Assembly (NCBI GenBank): GCA_000002445.1 | Contig: CP000071.1 | Location: 416,001 to 480,000 of the forward strand | DNA from: Trypanosoma brucei | Taxonomy: Eukaryota | DNA length: 64,000 nucleotides | Reading direction: 5' to 3' | In this document: positions 13,073 to 50,366 of the stretch, piece after piece | Numbering within the stretch: position 1 is the first letter of the stretch | Layout of the letters: each line of letters begins with the position of its first letter | Position numbers and translations under genes: made by a program | Notes under the pieces: model-generated | The model's input: the letters and a program-made list of their open reading frames with translations, nothing else | The model's database searches: none | What the model was told of the DNA's origin: nothing

Positions 13073-13327
13073 TTTCTTCACTCACAATCCACTATGTTAA
13101 TTCAATGAAAGGAGAGGCGAAATGGATATTTTTGTCAATGGTCAAGCGAGTGGCACCGCACACTACCTCCTCAGCCAAATTTACACTGCAACAGAAAGTG
13201 GCAGCATCGGATAGATCAGCCCAGCATCACATGTTCAAAGGAAAAAAATAGAAAGTAGCACGTACACACACACAACGTAGTAAATGCCAGAATACAGGAC
13301 AGATGAAAAGCGGCGGGGCACCAACTA

Positions 13328-29512: not shown

Positions 29513-30030
29513 TACTGAAAGAAAGAAAGGTAGAAAGAAAGAAAGAAGAAAATGCATCAAACCGGGCGACACACACAGTAGCGGAGATCAATCCCACGCG
29601 GGGAACCTCCTCGTTTTCAGGAGTCATACCATCACGCGAGGGGGTGCCCCGTATCGAGCCGGACCCCAAAGGGAAACTCGGAAATGCTGCGGAGGAAGCC
29701 AGGGACTCCGGGGTCCGCGGAGTCTGGACACCGTCGCCGACAGCCGAGTCTTCCACTACGGGCAAGACGACGGCGACCCCTACCACCGGCAGCCGCACCG
29801 CGCCGGCGATACAGTTGCGCGCTCACAGCACCACTGTAGGGGTGCCTCGCCCGTGTAGCCACAACCAGAGAGAAAGGGCAGCGGGGAGCCGACACAACTG
29901 CAGAAGGCTCTCGTCGTCAGAAAGTTCAACAGTGAAATGTAGAAGTGCCTTCTCTCTTCTCTTCTTGTAGCCGTTCAATCCAAGGAATAGTAAGGGCACA
30001 AGGCACATTTTAGTTGGAGCGCGAAATAGC
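29513..30030. promoter_or_regulatory. Compact divergent strand-switch region (head-to-head gene pair), candidate bidirectional RNA pol II start
   Basis: A minus-strand ATG at 29512 and a plus-strand ATG at 30031 face away from each other across ~520 bp of GC-rich sequence. A CT-rich tract with AG (29948-29969) lies upstream of the plus gene, and the minus gene has the pyrimidine/AG signal described in the previous feature. Confidence 0.4.
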
Positions 30031-31095: not shown

Positions 31096-34000
31096 AATAT
31101 TGGTTCAATTTTGTTTCTTTTTTGACTTCACTAACTAACCCCTTTTCCACTTGATGAGGTGGGTTCAGGAGCTCAAACCAAGAAAGCCATCAACTGGAAA
31201 CACGATTGGCGCATATCATGAAGGTAATGTGTTTGAAAAAGATGGTAAATCGAAAAGCCATACACCTATCAAGTTCGAGACGGACTGTCACCAGCTGGAG
31301 TTATAAATAACTCAATAGGCGCCAAAGTAGAAAAAAAGGATGGACGCGTGGAATTGAGGAAGTGACCCGAACGTAATTGCTTCGGTGTCCGTGTAAACAT
31401 CCTGTCTACAGAATTATTAACAGAGCTTCGACACTTATCTGGATCCCCTTGCTTGATACACGTAACAACTGCTGTTATTCGATAACGGGTACTCACGTTA
31501 ATTTGTTTTGTTTCTGCTCGATAAAGTGTGCTCTTTTTTCATGTCCTACAAATCTAAATAAAGACCAATGTGCTTTACCTGTTTACGTTAGCCATCTTAC
31601 AAATGAAATGCAAAAGAAACTTTGCATGTTATCATCAGTCACCATTACCGACAGAACAGTTGAAACTACGTGATATGACGATACAGCGCATGAGTCATAC
31701 TTTTTCTATTGTAAAGCAAGCAGCGAAACGTACAATATCATAGTCTAAAAATTTACTTCAAAGGAATTTGAAGATGTATTTCGAATCTGAACAACGATGG
31801 GGGATCAAAAAGACTTCTTGATTAGTTAAATATTAAGACTGTTCAACAGCTACGTAAGAAGCAGGAGCTTTTGTGGATGCCCATTCTCTCCCCCGATTCG
31901 TAGGGTTAACAAGAAGAGGGTCGATCCGCATGGTGTAGTAAATCCCTTTATCAGCAGTTGTTGACTTGAGATGGACCGCATTTACTCACAAGTACATAAA
32001 TTTGGATAGTTGAACGATCTGCTGTCACGATGGGACATTAGTTCACATGTAACGAACGTCCCAGGATAACGACAACAAACGTGGGTCCGTGAAAAAACGA
32101 GTTTTATACTGAGCGAAAGAATGTGCGTACATATCATCAGCATGAAATTATGTCCGACTCTCGTACAACTGACTATTTGGATGCGCCGCGGTTATACATA
32201 TCCTCATCGAAATTTCTAAAGGGAGAGAACGGCTGGATCAGTGGCATGAAAATATTTGCAGCTTGTAGTGGGACGGAATGGCAATACTTCGCCCACAATG
32301 CTTGGCTTTGAAGGTCGTCATAACAACGGGAAACTGTTAGGAGAGCCTAGCTCAATCAAACCAATGTAAATTAAGGCGGTGTGCTGATACGCCTGCGCAG
32401 CGTACGGCCTTCTGAATATATACTTTTTAATTTCACTGTGTGGACACTGAGCAACTCACCATAGACGACTAGTTTACTTCGAGTCGTGTTAGCATTATGA
32501 GGCGCCCTTCATTCTCTAGCCAGGTTATGTGGAGCAAAAACAAAAGCAACTGGGGGAGAAGTATGAAGGCGAAGTTTGGTGCTAGAACAGTATCAAATAC
32601 AGTCGCGACGTTTGCGTCGGTTGCGCGCCAAAAACAGAAATTATATCATGCTAATAAACACTACTTAGCGGAAACGTCAGTATGACAGCGTGTCGACGTT
32701 CCCGATGCGCGGGTAGACGGGATCGCCGTCAGATCGATTCCAGAAGAATCCCATCATTTACGTTCGGGGAAACTAAGACTCTGTTGACATGACGGTACGG
32801 GGAATTGTGCGAAAGGGTACTGAGTTTGCAGCGTCTTTCCTCTGTGAGAGCTGGGTTGCGTATTCACCCTCACGGCAGTGGTGAGGAATCAGAGCACCTA
32901 ACAGAGTGACCACCCTACTTCAGATACCAATACTACAAAAAAAGAAAAAGCAGGTATGTGAGAAGTGTCGATAAGAGTAACTTCCATATTTTTGCTTGAA
33001 GTTGAACATTGCGTCACATATGCACTTCTGGGAAGAACCCATACCTTTGTGAACCAACACAAACCGTGAGCAGTACTTTCAGACGTGGTGGGTGCATCCC
33101 CGGCACTGTTTTCTATTGTACGCCGCACAATAAGTAGCACCCCACCGAGCTACCAAATGCAGAACTGCGGCGGATCATCACGGACGAAAACACCAAAACG
33201 GCGTATGAATTCGCATTGCCTGGGCCCAGTAAACGCTGCAACCCATGGAGTCCTTTGATTCTTCCTTTGGAAATGTATAGAGGGGTGGAAACACTTGTTG
33301 CAGCTCTACTGCCCGGTTTGGGGTACGCCTCTGGTGTGAAGAAATAAACGGGTCGGGTTGGGAGCTTTCCATAGCGCGGTAAAAAACCATGACAGCTTCG
33401 TGTTAGTCGCTGCTCTCAGTACCGTTTAGCACAAAAGCCCGCTGTGGTGACGAACGCCCTCCAGGGCCATATGCGCCAGCATATACATGTTGTACTAACT
33501 CTTCTCGCTTCTATTGTAGCGGACATACACCCCATCTAGATTGATTCCATGCTTGGAAGTTCCGTGCATCAGCACGCCTGCGGCGTAGTATGACCTCTCC
33601 CTCTGCGCATTTGAGGGCGAACAAAAAATAGTTACAAAGCGTCAATGCTGACGCTCCTGGGCAGTGACTTGGAGGGGCGTCACTTTGGTAAGGGGCCGGT
33701 CTGCTTCTGATGGCTCGTTGTACCGCTGACGGATATGTGATTGAACATATGGTGACCGTTCTGTCGAACTGTAGGGCTTCTGTTTCTGAAAGATGATACT
33801 TCATACCACGGCAACTCTCGGGGGATAGCTTCTTATTGAGCCGGCCTCTGGTGTGGAGAGTTACTCCCCTTTTTTTCTGTCTTGGTGACAGAAGTGCGGT
33901 GCGTCCACTGTGGCAGTTGTGCACTGTATCGTACCTGAGTCTGGATGGGTAGAGGAATGATGTGCGGGAGCGCTTTCTCTGTTGCTTATGTGCTCGGCTT

Positions 34001-37000
34001 CGTACTGCCTTTTGACTGGGAAAGTCGGTGTTTGGAGTGTGCTGCCGTACTTTGGACGGTGGGGATTCTACTGTCCCGCGGCTTAACAAAAAAAAAAATC
34101 GTACGGTGGCACAGTCCCTGCCCACTACGGTGGATTTATGCGGTCATTACAGGGCAAAGGGTTTCTGGTTTGGATGCAGCGTGTCGCCGCTGTGTGCGCG
34201 TCGCAAACCTACTAAACGTTGTCACTTCAGCGCTACACAACGCGTAAGCCAACGCACGCAGGAAACACTTCTCATCATCTCCACTGTGTTTCCGCGGTCC
34301 TTTGCTTACCTTAGAGGGCGTGTCACGGTAGAATTTGTTGATGTGGTTCGCAATCTAATGAACTTGTCAAAAATGCTTAGCGGGGGCTGTTTTAGGGTTT
34401 GAGACAGGGGGTCAGGTGCGGTTTTAAGTTCTGTATCGTATCTTAATCGGCGTGGCATCCCGCTCTGACCTCTGTTCCGCATCCATTTCATGCGTTTCGC
34501 CTCATCTTCTTTAGCGGCGCACGCCTCCCTGGTATTGTCATGCAGGTGCCTTATTCCGCCCTGTGCGTCCCCGCCCCAAAAACGGAGCATAGCGCTATTG
34601 GCGCCTCTCTTGAAATGGCTTATCGACTCTTCGAAGCTTCCACCCATGTGAACCTGTTATCTCTTGCAACAATGCGGGTGCGCACACCTCCCCTCAAACT
34701 CAGCAGCATACCTTCTGTGGTGGGTTTCCGGCTCCAAGTTATTTCCGCAGAGTATGTGTGTGTTTAGTTGCATCAAGTGCGCCTTGTGTCGTCGTTTTGC
34801 CGGGGCGATGGTGTCGACCATTCACCCCACGTCCAGCTGCAGTTTTCTTTGGAGACTCACTCTTCGGTACGCAGCACGAGTTACATGCAAACGGCGAACA
34901 GACACAGGCGCGTAGCGTTCGAACGCGAAGGGGATCACTCATGTCCACTGCGCCAGGACCTGTCCCCTACGTCTCGAGAAATGAGCAAAAATCGACGAAG
35001 AGAAAGGCTTTTTGTTTGTGGTGCTTTCCTGCGCGTACGAAGCTACTCACTTTGGGAAGCCCACGTAGTATGACAACGCTGTCTTTCCGGTGCCTAAACG
35101 TCGTCGCTCAAGTCCCCTGATGGACGTTACCATCGCAATGCTAAGTGTGGCTGGTATATCTTAGTTAACTCTTCCTTCGGATGAAACTGCAGCCAGCTCC
35201 TCTTTTCGCATCATATGCGCTTCACCCCACAATATCGCACCATGCCACCGGGGTTTCATGGGAGAAATGACGTGGAATGGCAGATTGGGTGAAGGGTCAG
35301 GAAGGCATGACTCTTTCTGTGGCGGCGTATAGTGTTGATGTTTGGAAAGTTCTGCATGATCAGTCGATATCCTATACCCAGGTGCTGTGGGCGCAACGAA
35401 TGCCAGGGGCGATGGAGAGTGGAAATATCAGTTTGTGTTCACCGCCGTGCTCTTCCTCTGAGAGAAGGTGCCACAAAGCGCAGATCATCAATACTTCAAC
35501 GAAGAGAAGATAAGCTCAGTTTGAAGCGGCCGCCGAGTGTCGGCCGAGTGGTGATATCAAAATATCCCCCTACCCCACACTCCCTGCTTTCTTGGTGATT
35601 TAGCTCCGCAGCCACTCCGCCGAAACCTAATTCCGGTGGAGCGGAACGTTGACAGTTTGCCTCCCGTACCCAAAGGACTGCGAGACCTGGACACAACACT
35701 GAGGCGATAGGCATCGCCAGGAGAAAAGGCATTTGTCTTAGTTATCACTGCGTTTGGTTGGGGAAAGGGCGTGTTCCCAGTGCGGTGCTACCCAAGGCAC
35801 TTTTGTAGAACGCTGCTCATCGTTTGCTGTGCTTATCAAACCCGCCCCCTTACAAGCGAATGCCCACCAATCGGAGCCAGGGGCTGCAGGATCTCAAACC
35901 ACGTCGGCCGAAAGGTGGGGAACGCATTTCAAGGGATCACGACGCCGTTCGCTTGGAGACTTGTAACAGCGGGGGTTCAATGCCAAAAAGTTGCTCAGCG
36001 ATGCCTTTCTTAACCGACCGGAACGTCACAGAACATGAAACAGCGGCAGCGGCGCGTAGTGGTTGGCGAATAATAATAACCCCACCCCATTTTTAACATC
36101 TTTAGCAGTCCTCTCTGGGGCTATGGCTGCCAGGCGCCAACGATTTCACTATGAAGAACGGTTGTGAGGCTCGAAGTTAGTGTTTGTGAGTGTTTGAACC
36201 TCTTCGGCACGCTTCCGCACCCGGGATGAGGCAGAATAACCAGTGTGCCCACGGTGACAAAATGGCGGGACGTCGGCACAAGAGGCGGTTAAGGGATGCC
36301 AAATCGCCTGTCAAAACTAGTCGTTTTTTTTAAACCAAGGGTGCATCTCACTGAGGCCGACCAAGTGGCAGTGACGAGCCCCTTTACGAAGGCGCATTTA
36401 CCACAATGGTCCCTAAAAGAGGGCGCTAGCACACCCAAATACCAGCACCACCGAACTATAAGGCATCGATCAAACACTTTTTTGGCTGGTGGGAGCTTCT
36501 TGCCATCGACAGCTACGCCCCAGCCCACAAAGGTTTTTAAGGTAAATCCAGAAACGTTGGAAACGGGTACATTGTGCGAAGTACACGAGGAGGTCGTGCA
36601 CGCAGCCGTCGCACCGCGAGAGTTAAGGGCCTCACCTACAGATGGAGGACGACAAAAACAAACTTGCGGGAACCGGCTTTCCCAGATCGTCACAGTACGC
36701 GGGGCACGGAAAGCGAGTGCGCCGGAATGTCGGATGATGTTCAACCAGTGACCTCTCATCCACTTTGTGGAGCCCATTTGTCAGCGGCTTTATTGCCCAA
36801 CCGACCACACAACACCAATCCAAGGGTGGCACCTCCTTGCCCACTTCCGAGATGAAGACTACCACTTATAACAACGACCCTTTCCCTAAACCACCCTTGG
36901 TTTCCCAACACACGCACCTCCGAGGACATAAGCTAGGAAAATACAACCACCAATGTGCCGCACCCGGCAATACCACGGCATACCTACAAATATTCCAAGA

Positions 37001-38109
37001 CCTTCTGCATATCTGAACGAATAGCTGCCAGGTTGGACGCCCCAAAGGGCGGAAGTGCATCACACCACGAGGCACGCAACCTCTCGACACCAGTGCTGAA
37101 AAGCACAACCCTGTTGCCGGCACTTGCAAACCAACTGGTGTCACCACAAGCACTTCGACGAGCTGGTTTAAAAAAATCCGGCCAGCCGTCCGACAACACC
37201 TTTAAACATGAAGGGGGACGTCATGCCGCATCCATCAGTTAGAACATTTAGACAAAACATTGGGTTATTTGTTAAAAATAGATCCACAACAGCATAGTTA
37301 AAGTATAAACAAAAGATCGCCAAATACAGATTTTGGAGGGAAAACTTCGCGATGCACAAACATCAGAAACAACAGAGCTCCACACACACTCTTCAAACCA
37401 CTTCACAGTCAGCGCACCAGCGTCACATCGCAACCGTCACCCCTCCAATTGGGCATAACCCCGCTACAAACAACAATAAATTACCAGCCGCACGCGTACA
37501 AGATAAAACAACGACAACGATCACATATCACGCACTTCGACCGATCCCCACAAATCCGAAAAAAAAAAAATTACCTAAGCATATTCATTTAAAAACATGC
37601 AACAAAGAAACAAGTAAAATAAAACAATCACACAAGAGATCGCCCAATAACAGAAAAAAACGAAAATAATAATTCGATAACATCATTTAAATATCAAAAC
37701 AAAAAGGAAAAATAAACAAATAATTCAAAAGAATAATATATATAACAATTCCGATGCACATCTATTATTCCATACAAAAGGGTAGGAAAGCAAGTTATGA
37801 AGTTTCCCTGCCTCCTTCCCCATTTTTCCCTCCTTCCTTGCTGTCGTGTTGTCAGCCCTGTGCGCAAAAATTACCGTTATTGTATATGAGATCGGCCATG
37901 GTGGTAGCAACTTTTTCTGGGAGTATGGTCAGTGTGTGTTTCCTCTTGTATTTGCTTGTGTTTATGCGTGTGTGTGTTTGTGCTGGTGCCGAAGGGAGAG
38001 AAGGGGAACTTTTAACGGCAACCAGACAGTGAAGAAACTTAGAAACGGACGATTGGCATAGATTTAACACAAGTTGAATGACGGCTGCAGCTCTAGGAAA
38101 AAAGTTTGG

Positions 38110-38229
38110 GAGAGTACAACACCCCGGGTTCCAGCGCCATCACTGATCGCCGTACTAACGAGGCCTGTGGCCGCTTAACTTCACAAATCGGACGGGATAT
38201 GGTGCATTCGGCCAAGTATGGTCGTACCC
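38110..38229 (-). rRNA. 5S: 5S ribosomal RNA, copy 1
   Basis: The reverse complement reads GGGTACGACCATACTTGGCCGAATGCACCATATCCCGTCCGATTTGTGAAGTTAAGCGGCCACAGGCCTCGTTAGTACGGCGATCAGTGATGGCGCTGGAACCCGGGGTGTTGTACTCTC. This carries the conserved 5S blocks (CCATAC, CCGTCCGAT…GAAGTTAAGC, GGCCTCGTTAGTAC…) and matches the trypanosome 5S as I recall it. It is followed on the minus strand by TTTTTT (plus 38097-38102), a pol III terminator. Confidence 0.9.
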
Positions 38230-38844
38230 GACGTCCGGTAAACCGAATGCGTGCATTTATTCCGATACCCGTCAAACTTGTTCATGAGGGATTTGAAGTG
38301 TAGGAGACGCGAAAAAAAAAAAAAGAAAAGAAGAAAAGCACCTTTCTTACCACTCCATACCATCCCCCCTCCAGTACCTACAGACACCATTTCCATCACA
38401 CTACACGACACTAAAAAGTGGAAGAAAACATAACTTTCCTCTGAGTCCGGAGGGGGGGGGGTTGGGGGCGGATGAAACAGCCGTTCCGATGCACATCTAT
38501 TATTCCATACAAAAGGGTAGGAAAGCAAGTTATGAAGTTTCCCTGCCTCCTTCCCCATTTTTCCCTCCTTCCTTGCTGTCGTGTTGTCAGCCCTGTGCGC
38601 AAAAATTACCGTTATTGTATATGAGATCGGCCATGGTGGTAGCAACTTTTTCTGGGAGTATGGTCAGTGTGTGTTTCCTCTTGTATTTGCTTGTGTTTAT
38701 GCGTGTGTGTGTTTGTGCTGGTGCCGAAGGGAGAGAAGGGGAACTTTTAACGGCAACCAGACAGTGAAGAAACTTAGAAACGGACGATTGGCATAGATTT
38801 AACACAAGTTGAATGACGGCTGCAGCTCTAGGAAAAAAGTTTGG

Positions 38845-38964
38845 GAGAGTACAACACCCCGGGTTCCAGCGCCATCACTGATCGCCGTACTAACGAGGCC
38901 TGTGGCCGCTTAACTTCACAAATCGGACGGGATATGGTGCATTCGGCCAAGTATGGTCGTACCC
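38845..38964 (-). rRNA. 5S: 5S ribosomal RNA, copy 2
   Basis: Identical to copy 1 at a +735 offset; the landmark 'agagtacaac' is verified at 38846-38855. Confidence 0.9.
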
Positions 38965-39580
38965 GACGTCCGGTAAACCGAATGCGTGCATTTATTCCGA
39001 TACCCGTCAAACTTGTTCATGAGGGATTTGAAGTGTAGGAGACGCGAAAAAAAAAAAAAAGAAAAGAAGAAAAGCACCTTTCTTACCACTCCATACCATC
39101 CCCCCTCCAGTACCTACAGACACCATTTCCATCACACTACACGACACTAAAAAGTGGAAGAAAACATAACTTTCCTCTGAGTCCGGAGGGGGGGGGGTTG
39201 GGGGCGGATGAAACAGCCGTTCCGATGCACATCTATTATTCCATACAAAAGGGTAGGAAAGCAAGTTATGAAGTTTCCCTGCCTCCTTCCCCATTTTTCC
39301 CTCCTTCCTTGCTGTCGTGTTGTCAGCCCTGTGCGCAAAAATTACCGTTATTGTATATGAGATCGGCCATGGTGGTAGCAACTTTTTCTGGGAGTATGGT
39401 CAGTGTGTGTTTCCTCTTGTATTTGCTTGTGTTTATGCGTGTGTGTGTTTGTGCTGGTGCCGAAGGGAGAGAAGGGGAACTTTTAACGGCAACCAGACAG
39501 TGAAGAAACTTAGAAACGGACGATTGGCATAGATTTAACACAAGTTGAATGACGGCTGCAGCTCTAGGAAAAAAGTTTGG

Positions 39581-39700
39581 GAGAGTACAACACCCCGGGT
39601 TCCAGCGCCATCACTGATCGCCGTACTAACGAGGCCTGTGGCCGCTTAACTTCACAAATCGGACGGGATATGGTGCATTCGGCCAAGTATGGTCGTACCC
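39581..39700 (-). rRNA. 5S: 5S ribosomal RNA, copy 3
   Basis: Identical at a +1471 offset; the landmark is verified at 39582-39591. Confidence 0.9.
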
Positions 39701-40316
39701 GACGTCCGGTAAACCGAATGCGTGCATTTATTCCGATACCCGTCAAACTTGTTCATGAGGGATTTGAAGTGTAGGAGACGCGAAAAAAAAAAAAAAGAAA
39801 AGAAGAAAAGCACCTTTCTTACCACTCCATACCATCCCCCCTCCAGTACCTACAGACACCATTTCCATCACACTACACGACACTAAAAAGTGGAAGAAAA
39901 CATAACTTTCCTCTGAGTCCGGAGGGGGGGGGGTTGGGGGCGGATGAAACAGCCGTTCCGATGCACATCTATTATTCCATACAAAAGGGTAGGAAAGCAA
40001 GTTATGAAGTTTCCCTGCCTCCTTCCCCATTTTTCCCTCCTTCCTTGCTGTCGTGTTGTCAGCCCTGTGCGCAAAAATTACCGTTATTGTATATGAGATC
40101 GGCCATGGTGGTAGCAACTTTTTCTGGGAGTATGGTCAGTGTGTGTTTCCTCTTGTATTTGCTTGTGTTTATGCGTGTGTGTGTTTGTGCTGGTGCCGAA
40201 GGGAGAGAAGGGGAACTTTTAACGGCAACCAGACAGTGAAGAAACTTAGAAACGGACGATTGGCATAGATTTAACACAAGTTGAATGACGGCTGCAGCTC
40301 TAGGAAAAAAGTTTGG

Positions 40317-40436
40317 GAGAGTACAACACCCCGGGTTCCAGCGCCATCACTGATCGCCGTACTAACGAGGCCTGTGGCCGCTTAACTTCACAAATCGGAC
40401 GGGATATGGTGCATTCGGCCAAGTATGGTCGTACCC
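40317..40436 (-). rRNA. 5S: 5S ribosomal RNA, copy 4
   Basis: The repeat offset of +2207 is inferred from the track-ORF periodicity. Confidence 0.85.
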
Positions 40437-41052
40437 GACGTCCGGTAAACCGAATGCGTGCATTTATTCCGATACCCGTCAAACTTGTTCATGAGGGATT
40501 TGAAGTGTAGGAGACGCGAAAAAAAAAAAAAGAAAAGAAGAAAAGCACCTTTCTTACCACTCCATACCATCCCCCCTCCAGTACCTACAGACACCATTTC
40601 CATCACACTACACGACACTAAAAAGTGGAAGAAAACATAACTTTCCTCTGAGTCCGGAGGGGGGGGGGGTTGGGGGCGGATGAAACAGCCGTTCCGATGC
40701 ACATCTATTATTCCATACAAAAGGGTAGGAAAGCAAGTTATGAAGTTTCCCTGCCTCCTTCCCCATTTTTCCCTCCTTCCTTGCTGTCGTGTTGTCAGCC
40801 CTGTGCGCAAAAATTACCGTTATTGTATATGAGATCGGCCATGGTGGTAGCAACTTTTTCTGGGAGTATGGTCAGTGTGTGTTTCCTCTTGTATTTGCTT
40901 GTGTTTATGCGTGTGTGTGTTTGTGCTGGTGCCGAAGGGAGAGAAGGGGAACTTTTAACGGCAACCAGACAGTGAAGAAACTTAGAAACGGACGATTGGC
41001 ATAGATTTAACACAAGTTGAATGACGGCTGCAGCTCTAGGAAAAAAGTTTGG

Positions 41053-41172
41053 GAGAGTACAACACCCCGGGTTCCAGCGCCATCACTGATCGCCGTACTA
41101 ACGAGGCCTGTGGCCGCTTAACTTCACAAATCGGACGGGATATGGTGCATTCGGCCAAGTATGGTCGTACCC
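41053..41172 (-). rRNA. 5S: 5S ribosomal RNA, copy 5
   Basis: Repeat offset +2943. Confidence 0.85.
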
Positions 41173-41788
41173 GACGTCCGGTAAACCGAATGCGTGCATT
41201 TATTCCGATACCCGTCAAACTTGTTCATGAGGGATTTGAAGTGTAGGAGACGCGAAAAAAAAAAAAAGAAAAGAAGAAAAGCACCTTTCTTACCACTCCA
41301 TACCATCCCCCCTCCAGTACCTACAGACACCATTTCCATCACACTACACGACACTAAAAAGTGGAAGAAAACATAACTTTCCTCTGAGTCCGGAGGGGGG
41401 GGGGGTTGGGGGCGGATGAAACAGCCGTTCCGATGCACATCTATTATTCCATACAAAAGGGTAGGAAAGCAAGTTATGAAGTTTCCCTGCCTCCTTCCCC
41501 ATTTTTCCCTCCTTCCTTGCTGTCGTGTTGTCAGCCCTGTGCGCAAAAATTACCGTTATTGTATATGAGATCGGCCATGGTGGTAGCAACTTTTTCTGGG
41601 AGTATGGTCAGTGTGTGTTTCCTCTTGTATTTGCTTGTGTTTATGCGTGTGTGTGTTTGTGCTGGTGCCGAAGGGAGAGAAGGGGAACTTTTAACGGCAA
41701 CCAGACAGTGAAGAAACTTAGAAACGGACGATTGGCATAGATTTAACACAAGTTGAATGACGGCTGCAGCTCTAGGAAAAAAGTTTGG

Positions 41789-41908
41789 GAGAGTACAACA
41801 CCCCGGGTTCCAGCGCCATCACTGATCGCCGTACTAACGAGGCCTGTGGCCGCTTAACTTCACAAATCGGACGGGATATGGTGCATTCGGCCAAGTATGG
41901 TCGTACCC
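41789..41908 (-). rRNA. 5S: 5S ribosomal RNA, copy 6
   Basis: Repeat offset +3679. Confidence 0.85.
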
Positions 41909-42524
41909 GACGTCCGGTAAACCGAATGCGTGCATTTATTCCGATACCCGTCAAACTTGTTCATGAGGGATTTGAAGTGTAGGAGACGCGAAAAAAAAAA
42001 AAAGAAAAGAAGAAAAGCACCTTTCTTACCACTCCATACCATCCCCCCTCCAGTACCTACAGACACCATTTCCATCACACTACACGACACTAAAAAGTGG
42101 AAGAAAACATAACTTTCCTCTGAGTCCGGAGGGGGGGGGGGTTGGGGGCGGATGAAACAGCCGTTCCGATGCACATCTATTATTCCATACAAAAGGGTAG
42201 GAAAGCAAGTTATGAAGTTTCCCTGCCTCCTTCCCCATTTTTCCCTCCTTCCTTGCTGTCGTGTTGTCAGCCCTGTGCGCAAAAATTACCGTTATTGTAT
42301 ATGAGATCGGCCATGGTGGTAGCAACTTTTTCTGGGAGTATGGTCAGTGTGTGTTTCCTCTTGTATTTGCTTGTGTTTATGCGTGTGTGTGTTTGTGCTG
42401 GTGCCGAAGGGAGAGAAGGGGAACTTTTAACGGCAACCAGACAGTGAAGAAACTTAGAAACGGACGATTGGCATAGATTTAACACAAGTTGAATGACGGC
42501 TGCAGCTCTAGGAAAAAAGTTTGG

Positions 42525-42644
42525 GAGAGTACAACACCCCGGGTTCCAGCGCCATCACTGATCGCCGTACTAACGAGGCCTGTGGCCGCTTAACTTCACA
42601 AATCGGACGGGATATGGTGCATTCGGCCAAGTATGGTCGTACCC
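42525..42644 (-). rRNA. 5S: 5S ribosomal RNA, copy 7
   Basis: Repeat offset +4415. Confidence 0.85.
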
Positions 42645-43259
42645 GACGTCCGGTAAACCGAATGCGTGCATTTATTCCGATACCCGTCAAACTTGTTCAT
42701 GAGGGATTTGAAGTGTAGGAGACGCGAAAAAAAAAAAAAGAAAAGAAGAAAAGCACCTTTCTTACCACTCCATACCATCCCCCCTCCAGTACCTACAGAC
42801 ACCATTTCCATCACACTACACGACACTAAAAAGTGGAAGAAAACATAACTTTCCTCTGAGTCCGGAGGGGGGGGGGTTGGGGGCGGATGAAACAGCCGTT
42901 CCGATGCACATCTATTATTCCATACAAAAGGGTAGGAAAGCAAGTTATGAAGTTTCCCTGCCTCCTTCCCCATTTTTCCCTCCTTCCTTNCTGTCGTGTT
43001 GTCAGCCCTGTGCGCAAAAATTACCGTTATTGTATATGAGATCGGCCATGGTGGTAGCAACTTTTTCTGGGAGTATGGTCAGTGTGTGTTTCCTCTTGTA
43101 TTTGCTTGTGTTTATGCGTGTGTGTGTTTGTGCTGGTGCCGAAGGGAGAGAAGGGGAACTTTTAACGGCAACCAGACAGTGAAGAAACTTAGAAACGGAC
43201 GATTGGCATAGATTTAACACAAGTTGAATGACGGCTGCAGCTCTAGGAAAAAAGTTTGG

Positions 43260-43379
43260 GAGAGTACAACACCCCGGGTTCCAGCGCCATCACTGATCGC
43301 CGTACTAACGAGGCCTGTGGCCGCTTAACTTCACAAATCGGACGGGATATGGTGCATTCGGCCAAGTATGGTCGTACCC
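43260..43379 (-). rRNA. 5S: 5S ribosomal RNA, copy 8
   Basis: Repeat offset +5150; the landmark 'agagtacaac' is verified at 43261-43270. Confidence 0.9.
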
Positions 43380-43987
43380 GACGTCCGGTAAACCGAATGC
43401 GTGCATTTATTCCGATACCCGTCAAACTTGTTCATGAGGGATTTGAAGTGTAGGAGACGCGAAAAAAAAAAAAAGAAAAGAAGAAAAGCACCTTTCTTAC
43501 CACTCCATACCATCCCCCCTCCAGTACATACAGACACCATTTCCATCACACTACACGACACTAAAAAGTGGAAGAAAACATAACTTTCCTCTGAGTCCGG
43601 AGGGGGGGGGTTGGGGGCGGATGAAACAGCCGTTCCGATGCACATCTATTATTCCATACAAAAGGGTAGGAAAGCAAGTTATGAAGTTTCCCTGCCTCCT
43701 TCCCCATTTTTCCCTCCTTCCTTGCTGTCGTGTTGTCAGCCCTGTGCGCAAAAATTACCGTTATTGTATATGAGATCGGCCATGGTGGTAGCAACTTTTT
43801 CTGGGAGTATGGTCAGTGTGTGTTTCCTCTTGTATTTGCTTGTGTTTATGCGTGTGTGTGTTTGTGCTGGTGCCGAAGGGAGAGAAGGGGAACTTTTNAC
43901 GGCAACCAGACAGTGAAGAAACTTAGAAACGGACGATTGGCATAGATTTAACACAAGTTGAATGACGGCTGCAGCTCTAGGAAAAAA

Positions 43988-44047
43988 NNNNNNNNNNNNN
44001 NNNNNNNNNNNNNNNNNNNNNNNNNNNNNNNNNNNNNNNNNNNNNNN
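43988..44047. other. Assembly gap (60 N) inside the 5S array
   Basis: A run of N. The expected position of the next 5S copy (about 43996-44115) falls inside it. Single N calls also occur at 42990 and 43898. Confidence 0.95.
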
Positions 44048-44409
44048 GTTCCGATGCACATCTATTATTCCATACAAAAGGGTAGGAAAGCAAGTTATGA
44101 AGTTTCCCTGCCTCCTTCCCCATTTTTCCCTCCTTCCTTGCTGTCGTGTTGTCAGCCCTGTGCGCAAAAATTACCGTTATTGTATATGAGATCGGCCATG
44201 GTGGTAGCAACTTTTTCTGGGAGTATGGTCAGTGTGTGTTTCCTCTTGTATTTGCTTGTGTTTATGCGTGTGTGTGTTTGTGCTGGTGCCGAAGGGAGAG
44301 AAGGGGAACTTTTAACGGCAACCAGACAGTGAAGAAACTTAGAAACGGACGATTGGCATAGATTTAACACAAGTTGAATGACGGCTGCAGCTCTAGGAAA
44401 AAAGTTTGG

Positions 44410-44440
44410 GAGAGTACAACACCCCGGGTTCCAGCGCCAT
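44410..44440 (-). pseudogene. Truncated 5S rRNA fragment (3′ terminal ~31 nt) at the array boundary
   Basis: The sequence 'gagagtacaacaccccgggttccagcgccat' matches the 3′ end of the 5S gene and then diverges abruptly at 44441 ('ctcgcataaagacgg…'). Confidence 0.7.
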
Positions 44441-44466
44441 CTCGCATAAAGACGGAAAGGGATTCT

Positions 44467-44700
44467 CTTCCACATTACCGGAGAGCAGCATCTTATTGCG
44501 GATGATACTGCTGACAGCACGCTGGCACGTGCCCAGGGACCGAAAAATGAAAAACAGTGTCCCAACAAGACGCTGCTGATCCCTGTGCTGTATGATGCCG
44601 TATCCGGAGCAAAGCAGTGTTCCCCATGAAAGGAACGCTGCTGGCTCTTGGCTTCAGCCGATGAAAGTGGGTACTGGACCCTGGCACTCGTTGAGGTTGG
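44467..44700. repeat. Inverted-repeat arm A (~234 bp)
   Basis: The reverse complement of 44467-44700 aligns to 45941-46173, with a ~190 bp core at about 97% identity and about 90% overall. I checked this base by base over the core. Confidence 0.75.
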
Positions 44701-45940
44701 CGGCGTCGGCAGGGTATTCGCGAGCAAAACACCACAGAAGGTGAGGTGGTCGGCAACCTAAAAGGAATCATTACTCAAAGAAAATAACGCCTTGGGGCTG
44801 CCCGATGGACTCGCCCTTTCGGGTCGATGGTTGCGTATGAAAACCGTTTCTCCTTTCATATCGATCCTTTGCTGCGTATGCGGAGCCGAAAACGCCGAGG
44901 GGCCACCCTTGCAACATCCGTCAATTGCGCGCACATATATTACGGCAAATGTCCCACATCCCCGTTATGGATCAGTTTGCACATATTATCGATTCCACAG
45001 CAAATCCTTGGTCGATTAAGGCGTGTTGGCTTTGCATCGCGGCATTATGAATGAGTATTACGTATCCGCGTTGGCAGAAATTAGTGCACGCACAGAGCGT
45101 CTTGGCCAGCAAGCAGCGGTGATAAATTTGGGTCGATGAGTGTTGGACGTGATGGTCTTGCGGCTACAGAAGATTGTGGCGATAAGCGAGATCAAACAAG
45201 CAAGTCCCTTAACTAAAGGTCGGAATGGCTCAGATTATTACTTTTTGCTCGGATTGGAAGGAGTGTGTGGTTTTTGCGTTTGGTGTGGATTACGACAAGT
45301 CGTCTGCTGGAGATCCCGGCACTGATACGGAAGCATTTCTAATGGAACAGGGACAGTGTAGTGCCCCTCGATTGGTTGGTGACACCCAAGACAGCCAAGT
45401 CCAATTCACACCGAGCAAGTCGTTAAGTTCGCATTCGGGGATTAGGACGCTCTCGATATTACGCGACTACTCTCCACTTTGAAGCTCAAGGAACATGTAA
45501 CAACGCTCACAACAACCAAAGTCGAACATATTCTCGCTCCGTGGGAGATGATGACGCACCCCGTTAGGAGAGGAGGCTTTACAGCATGCTGCAGGCACAA
45601 TTTGTGGAAGAGCATGGCATGGATCCTCACATTATTTTCCAACCAATGAAACACATCTATCCGTTCCGCATGCCGAGGAACACTGTCAGCCACTTGGACA
45701 AATGCACCGCCATGTTGACTAATATGTAGAATAGTGTCCCTATGGTGTAAGCCATGTCTTAGACGAAGGATAAGAGCCATGGGAGCCGCCAGGGCGTTGT
45801 CCCTTCAAGACGCACGGTTATACGATAACAAGGAGGGCGCACGCCACACGCCTGTTGAATACGCAGGACAAGGCTTCCATTCCTTTACAGCAAGTGCACG
45901 TCCCGCTGCTGGAGATATATTGAATCCCCTGGCGATGCCG

Positions 45941-46173
45941 GCCACCTCAACGTGGTGCCAGGGTCCAGTACCCCGTATCACCGGGGAAAGCAAGAGCCAG
46001 CAGCGTTCCTTTCATGGGGAACACTGCTGTGCTCCGGCTACGGCATCATACAGCACAGGGATCAGCAGCGTCTTGTTGGGACACTGTTTTTCATTTGTCG
46101 GTCCCTGGGCACGTGCCAGCGTGCTGTCAGCAGTATCATCCGCAATAAGATGCTGCTGTCCGGTGATGTGGAA
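45941..46173. repeat. Inverted-repeat arm B (~234 bp)
   Basis: Partner of arm A across a 1,240 bp spacer. Both arms are spanned by look-alike track ORFs (the 191-aa minus ORF and the 182-aa plus ORF share …KSQQRSFHGEHC…ASYSTGISSVLLGHCFSF.GPWARASVLSAVSSAIRCC.PVMW…). Confidence 0.75.
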
Positions 46174-48032
46174 CTCCAAAAAAGGATTGCTAATTGACAT
46201 CTTTGGGAGAGTCCAGGGTGGGGGGCTTCTCGCCCCATCTGCTGTATTCCGTTCATCTGCGGAAATACAACAAGAGTTATAGAGGGTGTGTTAGGATGAA
46301 TAAAAAAAGGGAGGCTCTGCCACAGTTGCCAGACCGATAGCATCTCAGGGCTCTACGGTGATGGCTGATGGCCGCGCCAGTGGGGGGAAACTTTCACGAA
46401 GGCACGAAGAAAATTCCAAAAAAAAAATATTGAATCATTTCTCGCTTAAATTCGAGTGTGAAATGTAGATTTCAACATCTCTGGGGACTGATCGGAATGA
46501 GACCAAAAGGGACCAGTGAAAGGAGCCCTCATGTTATTTCCATCGGCGATGATCGTCTACTTTGGAAGGTCGGTATCGTAAAGGATGCCTCCTCCGCACC
46601 AACAGGAGCTCGGGTCATCCCTTTTCTCAGTTGCAGAGGATAAACCCTCCAACGAGCGTCGCTGGTGAATTGCGGGGCCTAAAGAGAAATAACAAAAGCG
46701 GATGAACCTTACGAGGCAATTGTTCCTTTTGGAACACATTTCAAAATACCTCCATGCGGTTACTATCCTGAGTTGTCGACTTTTTCTGTCTGTTTTTTTT
46801 ATTTTTTCTTAGAGGCGTTACGTCGTCGTCTTTTGCCTCGGACAGAGAACTTGTCCCCGCCACAGAGGCCGCTTTGTTGCCACTGTCCGCACTTGGTTTA
46901 GTAAGTGGGTATTACTTTCTTGCCTGTTTAAAAAGAAGAAACGCACGGTTACACCCAATTGGGAACCCGCAGTTGATTTGGTCACAGATGGCTCTTTGAG
47001 GGGTTGTGGGTCTGGGGCATGTCTTCTTATTGGATTCCGGTGAGGTGAAAGTAATGTTATGTGGTGTCGTTGGTTTAAGTTCCCTTTTCTTATCATGCAG
47101 GCTCAGGCCCGTGTCCTCTGACTCTCCTCAGTAGCATTCGTGGAATCCTTTCCCCCTGAGTATTGACATTTGGGTTGATAATACATTCCTGTAAGGCGCG
47201 GAACCAAAAGGAAACACAAAAGCCTACGGTCTTTCTGTGGCCATGGATGAGATGTTTATGATATTTGATTTCCACAACATTAGCACAAATTACTCGTTTA
47301 ACCGCTCCGTCAGCAAACCGGCGGTCGGCTCCCGCGGAGGCACACGGTTAAACTGTGCAAAGTTGGTGAAAGAGTTTAACTGACAAAAGGAAGTGGCGGT
47401 GTCCCGAGGCTTTTGGGGACCACAAGAACTGCCCTTTCACAGGTCTACTGTGAAATAAATATTCCGCTGCTGCTTGCCACCCAAGTTTGTGTCAGATGGG
47501 TATTGATGATTATATATGGTTATACATTTAGTTTATAATTCCTTGCTCCTCGCTTTAATTATATTTAATAAGTTGACCATTCGAACCGCACCGAAACTCG
47601 TATTTTTAAAAGATTTGTTTTCACTCGTCTTGGGGTTTTGTAGATTTTTTTGTATTTACACTCCTTTTTATTCGTTTCAAAGTCGATAATTCTGTTGATT
47701 TTCAATTTAAATGTTGTAAAAGTATTTTTTCTCTTAAATTTATGAGATTCTTCCGTGGAGCTTCAGTTTTTTCTTTGTTATTTGTTTTGTCTTTTATACC
47801 TAAAAATATTTGGAGAGAATCAGTGTGTTTGTGTTTTTTTGTGTAATATTTACCCATATATTTCAGTGGGGAGATTACAGAAGTAATATATATATATATA
47901 AAAGATCCTTTGTATTGCTTATGTGCTTTGTCTTTAAGCGGTTGTTGCTTTTCCTTTTTAACATATATTTTTGAAACATGATTTGGCCACATATTTTTTA
48001 TATTAGTTTTATTTAAATATTCTGTAGATTGA

Positions 48033-50366
48033 ATGGCACGTAATAAGGCTCACAAGCAGAGGTTTGCATCTAAACGTGCTGTTTCGGGTTTGGCAAAGGG
48101 ACGCACTATTCCAACGAAAAAGGAGAGTGTAAAAGCGCTTCATCCGTTGGAGGCCAAAGAGAGATCAAGGCAGTCTTTAGCTGCCCTGCGGGACAAGAAA
48201 AGGGCCAATGCCCTTCAACAAAAGAGAATCGGGAAAATATCCGGGTTGCCTCGGGCTGTTGGTGTTCTACCAGCAAATGAATCGGCTAACACGAACGCGG
48301 TCATTCGGGGCTTGTGCTTTTCTTTGGGGAGTGAAGTTCGTGACACTTGCCTCCCGTTCACTGCAAGTTCGAAAGAAAAGAAGGCATCTTTTACATTTAT
48401 GTCAGAGCGGAATGGCAATCTTCAGAGTTGTGTTGACATCGGTAAGGTCGCTGACTTTTTGGTGTTAGCACTGGATGTCTCGCGATCCGTACAGGAAATG
48501 ATACGTAACGTGCAAGAATCTATGGAAGTAGAAGATTGTGATGATGTTGGCTCCGTTGTGGCTACTACATGGTACGGAGATATTGGTCTTTGTATCACTG
48601 CGTTCACAAGAGAGCTGATTGCAGCTCTTAATGCCCAAGGGGTGCCGAGTGTAGCTGTAGTACTGCAAAATCTTGATACGTTCACTGAAAAGCAGCGTCA
48701 TAAAGTTATTAAGGTTCACCAGCGTTACTTTTTATCTGTTCTCCCTGAAACGACGAAGGTATTTACTGTGATTGATCAGGGTGACTATGACCCGGTGCTT
48801 CGGCATCTCCATGTCGCTAAACTTCGTTCACTAGCATGGCGTGATCAACATCCGTATTTGATAGTGGAGGAGGGATATTTTGATGATGATGCTCAAAAAC
48901 TTGTCGTAGGTGGTTACCTTCGTGGCATGGCACTCTCGGCCGAGCAATTGATTCACCTCACAAACCACGGGACGTTTCAGATTGAGAACATATGCCGGGG
49001 GGACCCAAGGGGTGATGAAGCCCAGGTTATTGATTCGTGTGAGAAGGCACACAGAGAGTCACTTGACTACGTTCAAGTGAATGCCACTCTTGACGATGCA
49101 GACGGACCAACTGAGGAAGATATTGCCTATCACAAATCAATAGGATTCAAAAAGGTCAAAGTTCCAGAGGGTGTATCTGATTACCAGGCAGCATGGTATG
49201 AATTCGAGGGTAGTGATATAAACTCGGAGACAGATATTGGTGAATCGGTACCGGGGGACGATGAGTATGCTGCGTCTGATCACTTTTCTCAGGGGACTTT
49301 AAGAACAACAGTTGACTTTCTTAAGGTGGAGGATGTAATTCGTTTGGAGCGGATGAACGACGACGAACGAGCTGCGGAAATACAGAGACTTAAAGAGGAG
49401 AGTGAAGAAGATGCGTGGAATCCAGATATTGTAGACACACCTTTCAATCTACCAGCAAGGCAAAGATTTATGAAATATCGCGGACTCAAGAGCTTCCAAA
49501 CGGGTAAATGGGACGCGGCGGAGAATCTCCCGCCACATTACGCTTATATTTACAAGTTACAGGGCATAACCCGCATTCGTGAGGCAGCGCTAGCGAAATG
49601 CGCCAGTGGAAGTGTCGCAACTGAGCAATTTGTGTATATAACACTCGTGGATGTTCCAAGTAAGGTCTGGAGAAGCGCTGTCGAAGGCGGTTGCATTATT
49701 GCATCGGGTCAGCTGGAGCATGAGCAGAAATGGTCAGTCCTTCACTTTAGGATTCAAAGGAGCTCGGATTGCGATGAACCAATTAAGTCAAAAATACCTA
49801 TGCTCGCTCATATAGGTTTTAGGAAGTTTTACGTGTCACCCATCTTCAGTGACATTACTACCTCAGATCGTACGAAGTTTGCCCGCTTTTTTCATCCAAA
49901 CGAAAAATTTTGTATGGCGAGTTTTTTTGGCCCTATATCGTATCAGCCTTGCCCTATTCTTTTGTTTGAAGTTCCGTCACTGGAGGAGCAGAATGAGGAC
50001 AATTCATTGCATTTGGCTTGCTTTGGAGGGGCACTACCGCCAAATCCAGACCTGTTGGTGCTCAAGCGTGCGGTACTGACGGGAAGAGTAGCGACTATTC
50101 ACAAAAAACAAATTGTAGTCAAATACATGTTTTTCAACGACGAGGACGTGCAGTGGTTTCAATCTGTGGACCTTCGCACTCGGTTGGGGAGACGTGGGAA
50201 AATAATAAAGGCTGTGGGAACTCGTGGGCTGTTTAAAGCATCCTTGAACGATCAGGTAATGCAGCATGATCTTGTTTGCATGGATCTTTATAAGCGTGTC
50301 TTCCCGAAGTGGACAACTTTGCCGTTTTGCATTTCGGATGTTCCGAAAGTTGTTGCCGAAGAGTAG
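48033..50366 (+). CDS. TSR1: Ribosome biogenesis protein TSR1 (pre-40S GTPase-like factor, Bms1/Tsr1 family)
   Basis: 777 aa, ATG confirmed. N-terminal MARNKAHKQRFASK… is followed by blocks that line up with yeast Tsr1 as I recall it: IGKVADFLVLALDVS against CAKVADFVVFGLS, and AWRDQHPYLIVEEGYFDD against NWRDNRGYVVADFVD. The C-terminal region is the AARP2CN/DUF663 type. Confidence 0.85.
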   Translation: MARNKAHKQRFASKRAVSGLAKGRTIPTKKESVKALHPLEAKERSRQSLAALRDKKRANALQQKRIGKISGLPRAVGVLPANESANTNAVIRGLCFSLGSEVRDTCLPFTASSKEKKASFTFMSERNGNLQSCVDIGKVADFLVLALDVSRSVQEMIRNVQESMEVEDCDDVGSVVATTWYGDIGLCITAFTRELIAALNAQGVPSVAVVLQNLDTFTEKQRHKVIKVHQRYFLSVLPETTKVFTVIDQGDYDPVLRHLHVAKLRSLAWRDQHPYLIVEEGYFDDDAQKLVVGGYLRGMALSAEQLIHLTNHGTFQIENICRGDPRGDEAQVIDSCEKAHRESLDYVQVNATLDDADGPTEEDIAYHKSIGFKKVKVPEGVSDYQAAWYEFEGSDINSETDIGESVPGDDEYAASDHFSQGTLRTTVDFLKVEDVIRLERMNDDERAAEIQRLKEESEEDAWNPDIVDTPFNLPARQRFMKYRGLKSFQTGKWDAAENLPPHYAYIYKLQGITRIREAALAKCASGSVATEQFVYITLVDVPSKVWRSAVEGGCIIASGQLEHEQKWSVLHFRIQRSSDCDEPIKSKIPMLAHIGFRKFYVSPIFSDITTSDRTKFARFFHPNEKFCMASFFGPISYQPCPILLFEVPSLEEQNEDNSLHLACFGGALPPNPDLLVLKRAVLTGRVATIHKKQIVVKYMFFNDEDVQWFQSVDLRTRLGRRGKIIKAVGTRGLFKASLNDQVMQHDLVCMDLYKRVFPKWTTLPFCISDVPKVVAEE

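Follow-up and report, generated by a model that had tools for sequence, protein, structure and literature searches.

A tandem 5S rRNA gene array at a published RNA polymerase II unit boundary on chromosome 8 of Trypanosoma brucei

The 5S rRNA genes on chromosome 8 of Trypanosoma brucei lie on the minus strand between two plus-strand RNA polymerase (Pol) II units, which raises the question whether the Pol III-transcribed repeats themselves stop Pol II and force a new start, or whether they occupy a boundary that was already there. The locus was analysed within a window of 64,000 nucleotides, i.e. the whole stretch of DNA under study.

The Rfam cmscan search of the window identified exactly eight full-length 5S_rRNA matches (RF00001), all on the minus strand, at 38111–38229, 38846–38964, 39582–39700, 40318–40436, 41054–41172, 41790–41908, 42526–42644 and 43261–43379, each with 89.1 bits against the gathering score of 38 (E-value ~9e-18). 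All eight genes were identical in sequence, and each was followed by CCCAAAC-TTTTTT. The first-pass annotation, which had read these elements as eight complete minus-strand 5S rRNA genes of 120 nt, was thus correct on identity, number, strand and completeness, but not on length, which is 119 nt according to Rfam. By blastn of one reference unit against the window, together with repeat spacing and variable columns, eight complete head-to-tail repeat units were delimited on the minus strand across 37749–43632, with a period of 734–736 bp and 99.5–100% identity, and the only differences between units were the lengths of two homopolymers, a single substitution and a single N. The array was not returned by Tandem Repeats Finder, the longest period of which (500) is shorter than the unit. 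The T. brucei-group origin, proposed earlier in comparison with the T. cruzi 5S unit of roughly 0.48 kb, was confirmed: five proteins encoded in the window have identical counterparts on chromosome 8 of T. b. brucei TREU927, of which the window covers 416,001–480,000. The repeats are the annotated 5S rRNA array of this chromosome (Tb927.8.1381 and the following genes), and both the array and its position between two Pol II units are already known.

The eight complete units are followed by a partial unit (43633–43987, minus strand; unit positions 1–355, 99.7% by blastn), which consists of spacer only, without 5S sequence, and runs up to an assembly gap of 60 N (43988–44047) inside the array; single Ns are also present at 42990 and 43898. 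Beyond the gap, a terminal partial unit (44049–44441, minus strand; unit positions 1–393, 100% by blastn) ends with the 3′-terminal 31 nt of a 5S gene (44411–44441), which is the truncated ninth copy noticed previously. This fragment at the upstream end of the array is dead, as it lacks 5S nt 1–88 and thereby the internal promoter region. The earlier description of the array up to 44440, with eight units and a truncated ninth, held in these respects, but the gap and the second partial unit had been overlooked. Because the gap lies inside the array, eight copies are the minimum given by this assembly, in which the array has been collapsed to eight copies and a gap; 100-N gaps occur at or in the array also in the sister assemblies of T. 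b. gambiense and T. b. equiperdum. The literature estimate of the T. brucei 5S copy number is in the hundreds, and if this is true, the array would be a much greater obstacle than it appears from the assembly.

On the left side, the window offset of 416,000 was obtained from Tb927.8.1370, which is located at 445051–445557 of chromosome 8 (Kolev et al. 2010, Table S1) and at 29051–29557 (minus strand) in the window. It is the first gene of a minus-strand Pol II unit, i.e. the first ORF of a ‘Divergent’ unit in Table S14 of the same study, and has orthologues of 73–75% identity in L. major and T. vivax. The divergent strand-switch region between Tb927.8.1370 and Tb927.8.1380 (29558–30030) was recognised from the ORF strands, from the GC skew, which changes sign at ca. 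29–30 kb where the ORF strands switch, and from Table S14, in which both flanking units are labelled ‘Divergent’. The plus-strand F-box gene Tb927.8.1380 (30031–31095; Pfam F-box-like, identical to XP_846974, called F-box adaptor in PMC12816148) constitutes a Pol II unit of one gene, being both the first and the last ORF of its own unit in Table S14. Its position directly at the divergent strand-switch region had been overlooked in the first-pass annotation.

The flank that follows (31096–37249) is gene-free, with no ORF longer than 204 aa, no Pfam match, no Rfam match at E≤1, no retroelement coding similarity and no novel transcript in Kolev Table S7, and it is ca. 97.7% conserved in T. b. 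equiperdum. An A-rich tract (37250–37748; 47% A, 35% G+C) adjoins the downstream (3′) end of the array, with 15 runs of four or more A (window average, 3 per 499 nt), including A12 at 37559–37570; on the 5S-sense strand these are T runs. No tRNA genes were found in the 64-kb window.

On the right side, the broken 5S gene is joined directly to a 5′ fragment of an ingi-type non-LTR retrotransposon of ca. 273 nt (44442–44714, minus strand), which shares 92% identity with nt 1–247 of the RIME described below. Beyond the RIME junction, the fragment reads on into GNVEENPFP, a 2A-like motif corresponding to GDVEENPG of the T. theileri element, and it carries a degenerate Pr77 hallmark. A complete RIME-type retroposon (45927–46426, plus strand) points toward TSR1. 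Its Pr77 hallmark is intact, it has an A10 tail, and it is flanked by the target-site duplication ATATTGAATC (left copy 45917–45926, right copy 46427–46436, plus strand), a 10-mer with only two occurrences in the window. The start of the element, CCCTGGCGATGCCGG-CCACC-TCAA-CGTG, with CCACC at positions 16–20 and the downstream element CGTG at 25–28, agrees with the Pr77 features given in PMC4748587. RIME copies of 92–94% identity, each with its own 12-nt target duplication, are present on T. b. gambiense chromosomes 7 and 2, and the first 242 nt of the element at this locus share 70% identity with the 5′ end of a T. theileri autonomous element. Two annotated plus-strand pseudogenes, Tb927.8.1390 (44827–45729; chromosome 8 460827–461729) and Tb927.8.1400 (46702–47460; 462702–463460), are located in the same flank, and for neither was a transcript detectable (Kolev Table S2). 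A T-rich leader region of low GC (47500–48032, plus strand; GC 27–28%), presumably a splice-acceptor or 5′UTR region, precedes the TSR1-like gene Tb927.8.1410 (48033–50366, plus strand; Pfam RIBIOP_C, AARP2CN and Tsr1_G-like), which is the first ORF of its Pol II unit and encodes a product identical to XP_846975/Q580I2. The flanks named earlier, a plus-strand F-box gene ending at 31095 and a plus-strand polycistron starting at 48033, were thus recovered.

In Kolev et al. 2010 (Table S14), the one-gene unit of Tb927.8.1380 is split from a separate plus-strand unit, Tb927.8.1410–1650, the start of which is described as ‘next to rRNA’, and the array does stand at a Pol II unit boundary, as had been proposed. 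These units were defined in procyclic cells by 5′-triphosphate RNA-seq, in agreement with histone marks, and on an assembly in which the array is interrupted by a gap. No novel transcript was recorded for chromosome 8 426,182–513,118 in these data, and the number of processed transcripts detected in the 6.6 kb between the F-box gene and the array was zero. It could be argued that the boundary is not functional, i.e. that Pol II reads through and that the apparent gap reflects unmappable repeats and unstable RNA, since read mapping is unreliable over a repetitive array with an assembly gap and steady-state RNA-seq is blind to unstable read-through transcripts. The enrichment of 5′-triphosphate reads, however, indicates an independent start for Tb927.8.1410, and reads can be mapped to the unique flanks (6.6 kb and 3.6 kb), where neither novel transcripts nor transcripts of the pseudogenes were recorded, which makes continuous read-through extremely improbable.

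According to another explanation, the 5S array itself is a Pol II terminator or insulator, in which dense, head-on Pol III/TFIIIB complexes block Pol II and force a downstream start. Pol III genes are present at ca. 20 of the 154 annotated T. brucei termination regions, where they have been proposed as roadblocks, and tRNA genes are cited by Kolev as strong Pol II stops; at this locus, the 5S genes are oriented head-on to the F-box unit, and separate Pol II units lie left and right of the array. Occupancy of the 5S cluster by RPC1 and TBP has been published from ChIP-seq, T. brucei 5S repeats are reported to contain base J, and in T. vivax, which is without the array, the F-box and TSR1 genes are on one strand and separated by a single transporter gene. 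On the other hand, the same published ChIP-seq data show the cluster without BDF7, ELP3b, PHD2, PHD4, TFIIS2-2, DOT1A and TRF, which mark tRNA/snRNA-type termination regions (seven of the eight such factors, as counted here). In addition, L. major TSR1 heads its unit without any Pol III gene, and already the 6.6-kb stretch before the array is without detected processed transcript. That the array is the active terminator is therefore somewhat doubtful.

The restart of the TSR1 unit might instead be driven by Pr77 of the RIME, with the degenerate inverted ingi 5′ end at 44714 as the antisense half of a bidirectional start. The Pr77 hallmark of the RIME is directed toward TSR1, and the 5′ ends of the RIME and of the ingi fragment face away from each other at a distance of 1.2 kb. 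Pr77 is reported to be a Pol II-dependent promoter in T. cruzi that binds TBP and SNAP50. Two other RIME copies are in apparent Kolev start regions (chromosome 2 ‘next to snRNA’, chromosome 7 ‘Divergent’), matched by neighbouring gene content and not by coordinates, but the resulting three of three copies are a biased sample, comprising annotated ORF-bearing copies only. Pr77 transcripts are reported as unspliced and element-length, and both extension into a polycistron and RIME promoter activity in T. brucei are putative. Moreover, L. major starts its TSR1 unit without this RIME. Start regions of T. brucei are broad and generally lack defined promoters, which likewise counts against a RIME promoter, and this explanation is considered quite unlikely.

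In L. major, TSR1 is the first gene of its unit and is preceded by a divergent strand-switch region of 7.6 kb, on the other side of which lie the orthologues of Tb927.8.1370 and dynein; neither 5S nor tRNA genes were found in that region. Because TSR1 heads the L. major unit without a Pol III gene, the restart site is probably older than the array. The order in T. vivax is F-box, amino-acid transporter and TSR1, all on the same strand, with no 5S gene at the syntenic position. T. theileri has a retrotransposon upstream of TSR1, and the contigs of T. cruzi, T. rangeli and T. grayi end 0.7–6.6 kb upstream of TSR1. The array, previously described as inserted, is lineage-specific: neither T. vivax nor L. 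major has it at the syntenic position. Since the three T. vivax genes share one strand, transcription in the Salivarian ancestor may have continued into TSR1; the unit could then have been split by the array, or by whatever events introduced it, and the restart site would be new.

On this evidence, it is likely that the array occupies a pre-existing boundary, which it would reinforce rather than create. The 119-nt gene, one per 736-bp unit, is transcribed by Pol III on the minus strand and ends at the T6 run, and the array is placed within a 17-kb interval without detected processed Pol II transcript, separating two plus-strand units. The one-gene F-box unit would start at the divergent strand-switch region, ca. 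29.6–30.0 kb, and the Tb927.8.1410–1650 unit somewhere within the 3.6 kb that separate the array from TSR1. As TSR1 heads its unit in Leishmania too, the array and the retroposons beside it most likely arrived at an already existing unit start; accumulation of retroposons at polycistronic transcription starts has been reported (PMC4748587). Pol II coming from the F-box gene would halt in the 6.6-kb spacer or at the array, and as the spacer is without detected processed transcript, termination may take place before the array, the Pol III/TFIIIB complexes, positioned nucleosomes and base J of which would reinforce the boundary.

In comparison with the published T. brucei 5S repeat (Tb927.8.1381 cluster; Cordingley 1985; Maree et al. 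2017), the locus is the same, with eight identical genes and ca. 620-bp spacers, and there is no biological difference; a single chromosome 8 cluster of eight identical 5S genes with three positioned nucleosomes per unit was described by Maree 2017. By the 416,000 offset the array is at ca. 453.7–460.4 kb, which agrees with the interval 454,171–460,512 given for strain 427. Visible in the window, but absent from the T. brucei 5S-cluster papers compared, are the 60-N gap, the truncation of the terminal copy and the junction with the retroposon. Other trypanosomatids likewise have a conserved 5S gene that Pol III transcribes, but the copies of Leishmania, 9–11 in number, are dispersed and linked to tRNA genes. 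With the Pr77-bearing ingi/RIME retroposons (L1Tc/ingi clade), the element at 45927–46426 shares the Pr77 5′ hallmark, the size of ca. 500 bp, the poly(A) tail and the target-site duplication, and the fragment at 44442–44714 shares the ingi-type 5′ end and a remnant 2A-like motif; the latter differs from ingi in being truncated on its 3′ side and fused to a broken 5S gene, which is not a normal product of target-primed insertion. Other T. brucei Pol II units beside Pol III/rRNA genes (Kolev et al. 2010, Table S14; Siegel et al. 2009; Staneva et al. 2021) show the same plus-strand end and restart across Pol III genes. The tRNA/snRNA-type termination regions, however, comprise one or a few genes, whereas the 5S locus is a multi-kilobase tandem array, with RPC1 and TBP and without the seven other factors. 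In yeast tDNA/TFIIIC chromatin insulators, Pol III complexes likewise stand between differently regulated Pol II domains, but trypanosome TFIIIC has been reported to be reduced to four subunits (PMC10781861), and barrier or enhancer-blocking activity of the 5S array is putative.

Eight full-length 5S rRNA genes were identified on the minus strand at 38111–43379, each matching RF00001 (Rfam) over model positions 1–120 with a score of 89.1 bits, when the curated gathering score of the model is 38, and the elements are thus 5S rRNA genes, as claimed in the first-pass annotation. The gene sequence was identical in all copies and directly followed by CCCAAAC-TTTTTT, placing the start of the TTTTTT Pol III terminator 8 nt past the 3′ end in each of the eight genes. 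The surrounding sequence forms a tandem array of head-to-tail, constant-length and sequence-homogenised units, eight of which are complete (37749–43632, period 734–736 bp) with identities of 99.5–100% to an aligned reference unit. Variation among the units was confined to one A-run length, one G-run length, one substitution and one ambiguous base. Units were defined by direct repeat search and blastn; Tandem Repeats Finder reported no repeats, due to its period limit of 500.

The eighth unit is followed on its right by a partial unit of 355 bp devoid of 5S sequence (43633–43987), which an assembly gap of 60 N (43988–44047) separates from a terminal partial unit of 393 bp, terminating in the 3′-most 31 nt of a 5S gene (44411–44441). 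The previously noted eight complete copies and truncated ninth were thereby recovered, but with a gap inside the array, eight is a minimum. Each of the three Trypanozoon assemblies has an N gap within or adjoining the 5S array, at 5706–5805 and 17783–17882 in the comparison sequences L012 and L008, respectively, in addition to the window. The TREU927 sequence combines 60 N with eight 5S genes, Trypanosoma brucei gambiense combines 100 N with 12 or more units, and T. b. equiperdum has six genes and a gap of 100 N located at the left junction; the distance from the F-box gene to TSR1, the protein-coding genes flanking the array, is 16.9, 20.2 and 15.3 kb, respectively. A review-cited estimate of several hundred 5S copies fits these gaps. 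Identity of the reference unit to the T. b. gambiense units was 97.8–98.8%, and the T. b. equiperdum alignments spanning the array were ca. 98.3–98.4% identical.

No tRNA genes were found by a tRNA scan of the whole window, and Rfam searches at E-value ≤1 over 29.5–48.1 kb returned the eight 5S genes only, with no snoRNA, tRNA-like element or ribozyme. Sensitive blastn of the repeat unit against both flanks of the array gave matches at chance level only, so no hidden 5S remnants are present; a 14-nt match resembling 5S, on the right-hand side of the RIME retroposon at 45927–46426, was likewise at chance level and is not regarded as such a remnant.

These 5S genes have published identifiers (Tb927.8.1381 and following), and correspond to the single chromosome 8 cluster of eight identical 5S genes described by Maree et al. 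(2017), who reported three positioned nucleosomes per unit, an upstream nucleosome-depleted region, and a putative box A at 5S positions 51–62. ChIP signal of RPC1 and TBP on the cluster was reported by Staneva et al. (2021), ChIP of C82 has been published using Tb927.8.1381 primers, and base J has been reported in the T. brucei 5S repeats.

Five window-encoded proteins are fully identical in sequence to T. b. brucei TREU927 proteins of a 2.48-Mb contig. The window was placed on chromosome 8 (v4) at 416,001–480,000 by the published coordinates of Tb927.8.1370 and a poly(A) site of Tb927.8.1420. The F-box gene (30031–31095, plus strand) is Tb927.8.1380, TSR1 (48033–50366, plus strand) is Tb927.8.1410 (UniProt Q580I2), and an EamA transporter gene is Tb927.8.1460. 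Open reading frames are on the minus strand over 1–29.6 kb and on the plus strand from 30031, and the GC skew flips at the same place, locating the F-box gene directly at a divergent strand-switch region. This position was absent from the first-pass annotation. Separating Tb927.8.1370 from the F-box gene, the strand-switch region (29558–30030) is only ca. 470 bp long, and its Leishmania major counterpart, extending to TSR1, is 7.6 kb. Within the minus-strand block, the adjacent ORFs at 12242–13081 (279 aa) and 13328–14158 (276 aa) look tandemly duplicated, each with a 211-aa antisense ORF, and, judged by their location, probably represent Tb927.8.1330 and Tb927.8.1340.

The 5′-triphosphate RNA-seq unit map of Kolev et al. 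(2010), reported to agree with the histone-variant maps of Siegel et al., lists in Table S14 a divergent minus-strand unit from Tb927.8.1370 to Tb927.8.480, Tb927.8.1380 alone as a one-gene, divergent plus-strand unit, and a plus-strand unit from Tb927.8.1410 to Tb927.8.1650 annotated as “next to rRNA”. The array hence marks a Pol II unit boundary, as had been proposed, and both the separate units on either side and the independent downstream start come from published data and were not derived from the sequence. The pseudogenes Tb927.8.1390 and Tb927.8.1400, located between the array and TSR1, were without detectable transcript, and the tables of the same study hold no novel transcripts between 426,182 and 513,118 of chromosome 8. 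The earlier observation is confirmed and its interpretation partly supported, in that the boundary is real. With the array annotated, its chromatin mapped, and the boundary beside it in the literature since 2010, the finding itself adds little. The supplements of Reynolds 2016 did not mention these genes, the text of Cliffe 2010 made no mention of 5S, rRNA or tRNA, and the supplements of Staneva et al. (2021) included no table for the 5S locus.

The first-pass annotation went further and proposed the array itself as a candidate Pol II terminator or insulator. As a candidate contributor to termination, the array has its 5S genes facing the F-box unit head-on, occupied by Pol III and TBP and carrying the reported base J, but two observations speak against a mode of action like that of tRNA-type termination regions: from the factor set of tRNA and snRNA termination regions, TBP alone (with RPC1) was present on the 5S cluster in the published ChIP data, and the other seven of eight factors, i.e. 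BDF7, ELP3b, PHD2, PHD4, TFIIS2-2, DOT1A and TRF, were not enriched (Staneva et al. 2021). Moreover, a long stretch lacking any detected processed transcript precedes the array. It runs for 6.6 kb from the F-box gene to the array, and neither a convincing ORF nor a Pfam domain or Rfam match was found in it.

Most of the left flank (31096–37249, 6.2 kb) has a normal GC content and a largest ORF of at most 204 aa, resembles no retroelement, has no published transcript, and is ca. 97.7% conserved in T. b. equiperdum. Three short ORFs are annotated in the equivalent region of T. b. gambiense. Pfam searches with the nine longest flank ORFs returned zero matches. A weak, inverted match to Pr77, the promoter hallmark of the L1Tc/ingi clade, at 35684–35724 was considered as a trace of a degenerate element and dropped, since tblastx of the Trypanosoma theileri retrotransposon against the left flank gave no match at E-value <0.1. 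The last 500 bp of the flank (37250–37748), abutting the 3′ end of the array, are A-rich (47% A) with an A12 run. Read on the 5S-sense strand, this tract is densely packed with T runs, and it could be a candidate back-stop for Pol III read-through.

The 3.6 kb from the array to TSR1 include, together with the two annotated pseudogenes, an inverted repeat of 253 bp with arms at 44468–44719 and 45922–46173 (92% identity). A DNA transposon was rejected as its origin, because the arms are the 5′ ends of two retroposons. The right one, classified by its sequence as a complete RIME of ca. 500 bp (45927–46426), points toward TSR1 and is located 1.6 kb upstream of it. It starts with CCCTGGCGATGCCGG-CCACC-TCAA-CGTG, with CCACC at positions 16–20 and a CGTG downstream element at 25–28, and 45927–45954 accordingly carries the Pr77 hallmark and downstream core element described for the L1Tc/ingi clade (PMC4748587). 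The 3′ end is an A10 tail, and a 10-nt target-site duplication, ATATTGAATC, is found at both sides (45917–46436 overall). Over its first 242 nt, the RIME shares 70% identity with the 5′ end of a T. theileri autonomous element (L005 2069–2312), a segment immediately preceding ORFs that encode endonuclease, reverse transcriptase and RNase H domains.

Two paralogues of the RIME, 92–94% identical and each with its own 12-nt duplication, were retrieved from T. b. gambiense (L015 10045–10553, L016 10025–10530). One is in a divergent strand-switch region of chromosome 7; the other, on chromosome 2, is 213 bp away from the U2 snRNA gene. Both seem, from the genes around them, to correspond to published Pol II start regions. 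Retroposons are also expected at the present locus, since PMC4748587 reports members of the L1Tc/ingi clade to accumulate where polycistronic transcription starts. The pseudogene Tb927.8.1400 (46702–47460) has the same length, 759 bp, as Tb07.30D13.60 and Tb07.30D13.110 (Kolev Table S2), two “hypothetical protein, conserved, pseudogene” entries located close to the chromosome 7 end, and the equal lengths hint at another dispersed repeat.

The left retroposon, on the minus strand from 44714 down to 44442, extends past the RIME junction to include a 2A-like motif (GNVEENPFP versus GDVEENPG in T. theileri) and so derives from the 5′ end of an ingi-type element, with a degenerate Pr77. Its 3′ side, at nucleotide ca. 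273 just past the 2A-like motif, is fused directly to nucleotide 89 of a 5S gene. Judged from the sequence, this join, located at the array's upstream end, is a non-homologous rearrangement junction and no normal insertion, and it looks like the scar of a rearrangement that placed or bounded the array. Conservation of both retroposons and the junction extends to T. b. gambiense and T. b. equiperdum.

On chromosome 7 of L. major, TSR1 heads the plus-strand genes and is separated by the 7.6-kb gap from the minus-strand orthologues of Tb927.8.1370 and dynein heavy chain, and the interval upstream of TSR1 contains no 5S or tRNA gene. The gene order in Trypanosoma vivax is Tb927.8.1370 orthologue (minus), F-box, amino-acid transporter and TSR1 (all plus), with no 5S gene between F-box and TSR1; the transporter gene (L009 5874–7262) sits where T. 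brucei has the 5S array, and tblastn with the transporter against the window found no remnant. A non-LTR retrotransposon is located upstream of TSR1 in T. theileri. Contigs of Trypanosoma rangeli, Trypanosoma grayi and Trypanosoma cruzi end 6.6, 0.7 and 2.5 kb upstream of TSR1, respectively, and the 2.5 kb of T. cruzi held no called gene. The F-box homologue search returned T. congolense and T. equiperdum as the only species, and the 2.5–10 kb preceding TSR1 in T. theileri, T. rangeli, T. grayi and L. major contained no F-box gene. On the basis of synteny, presence of the array at this position is confined to the T. brucei group and the role of TSR1 as unit head looks older, so that the restart of transcription upstream of TSR1 would seem to predate the array, which argues against the array as the cause of the boundary.

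We therefore rate the array as an occupant, and perhaps a reinforcer, of a pre-existing boundary above the array as terminator. A contribution of the RIME Pr77 to the restart at TSR1 is speculative. In a joint reading, which we regard as improbable, a domesticated Pr77 of the RIME at 45927, back to back with the decayed ingi 5′ end, would supply the restart of the TSR1 polycistron, and the 5S array would have arrived by the rearrangement fusing a 5S gene to the ingi. If the retroposon-promoter reading were true, retroposon 5′ ends and not Pol III genes would be the working parts of starts “next to rRNA/snRNA”. Whether a Pol III array is the cause or an occupant of a polycistron boundary is a real question in trypanosome transcription, for which the present locus could serve as a clean test case, given that array-free versions of the same neighbourhood occur in related species.
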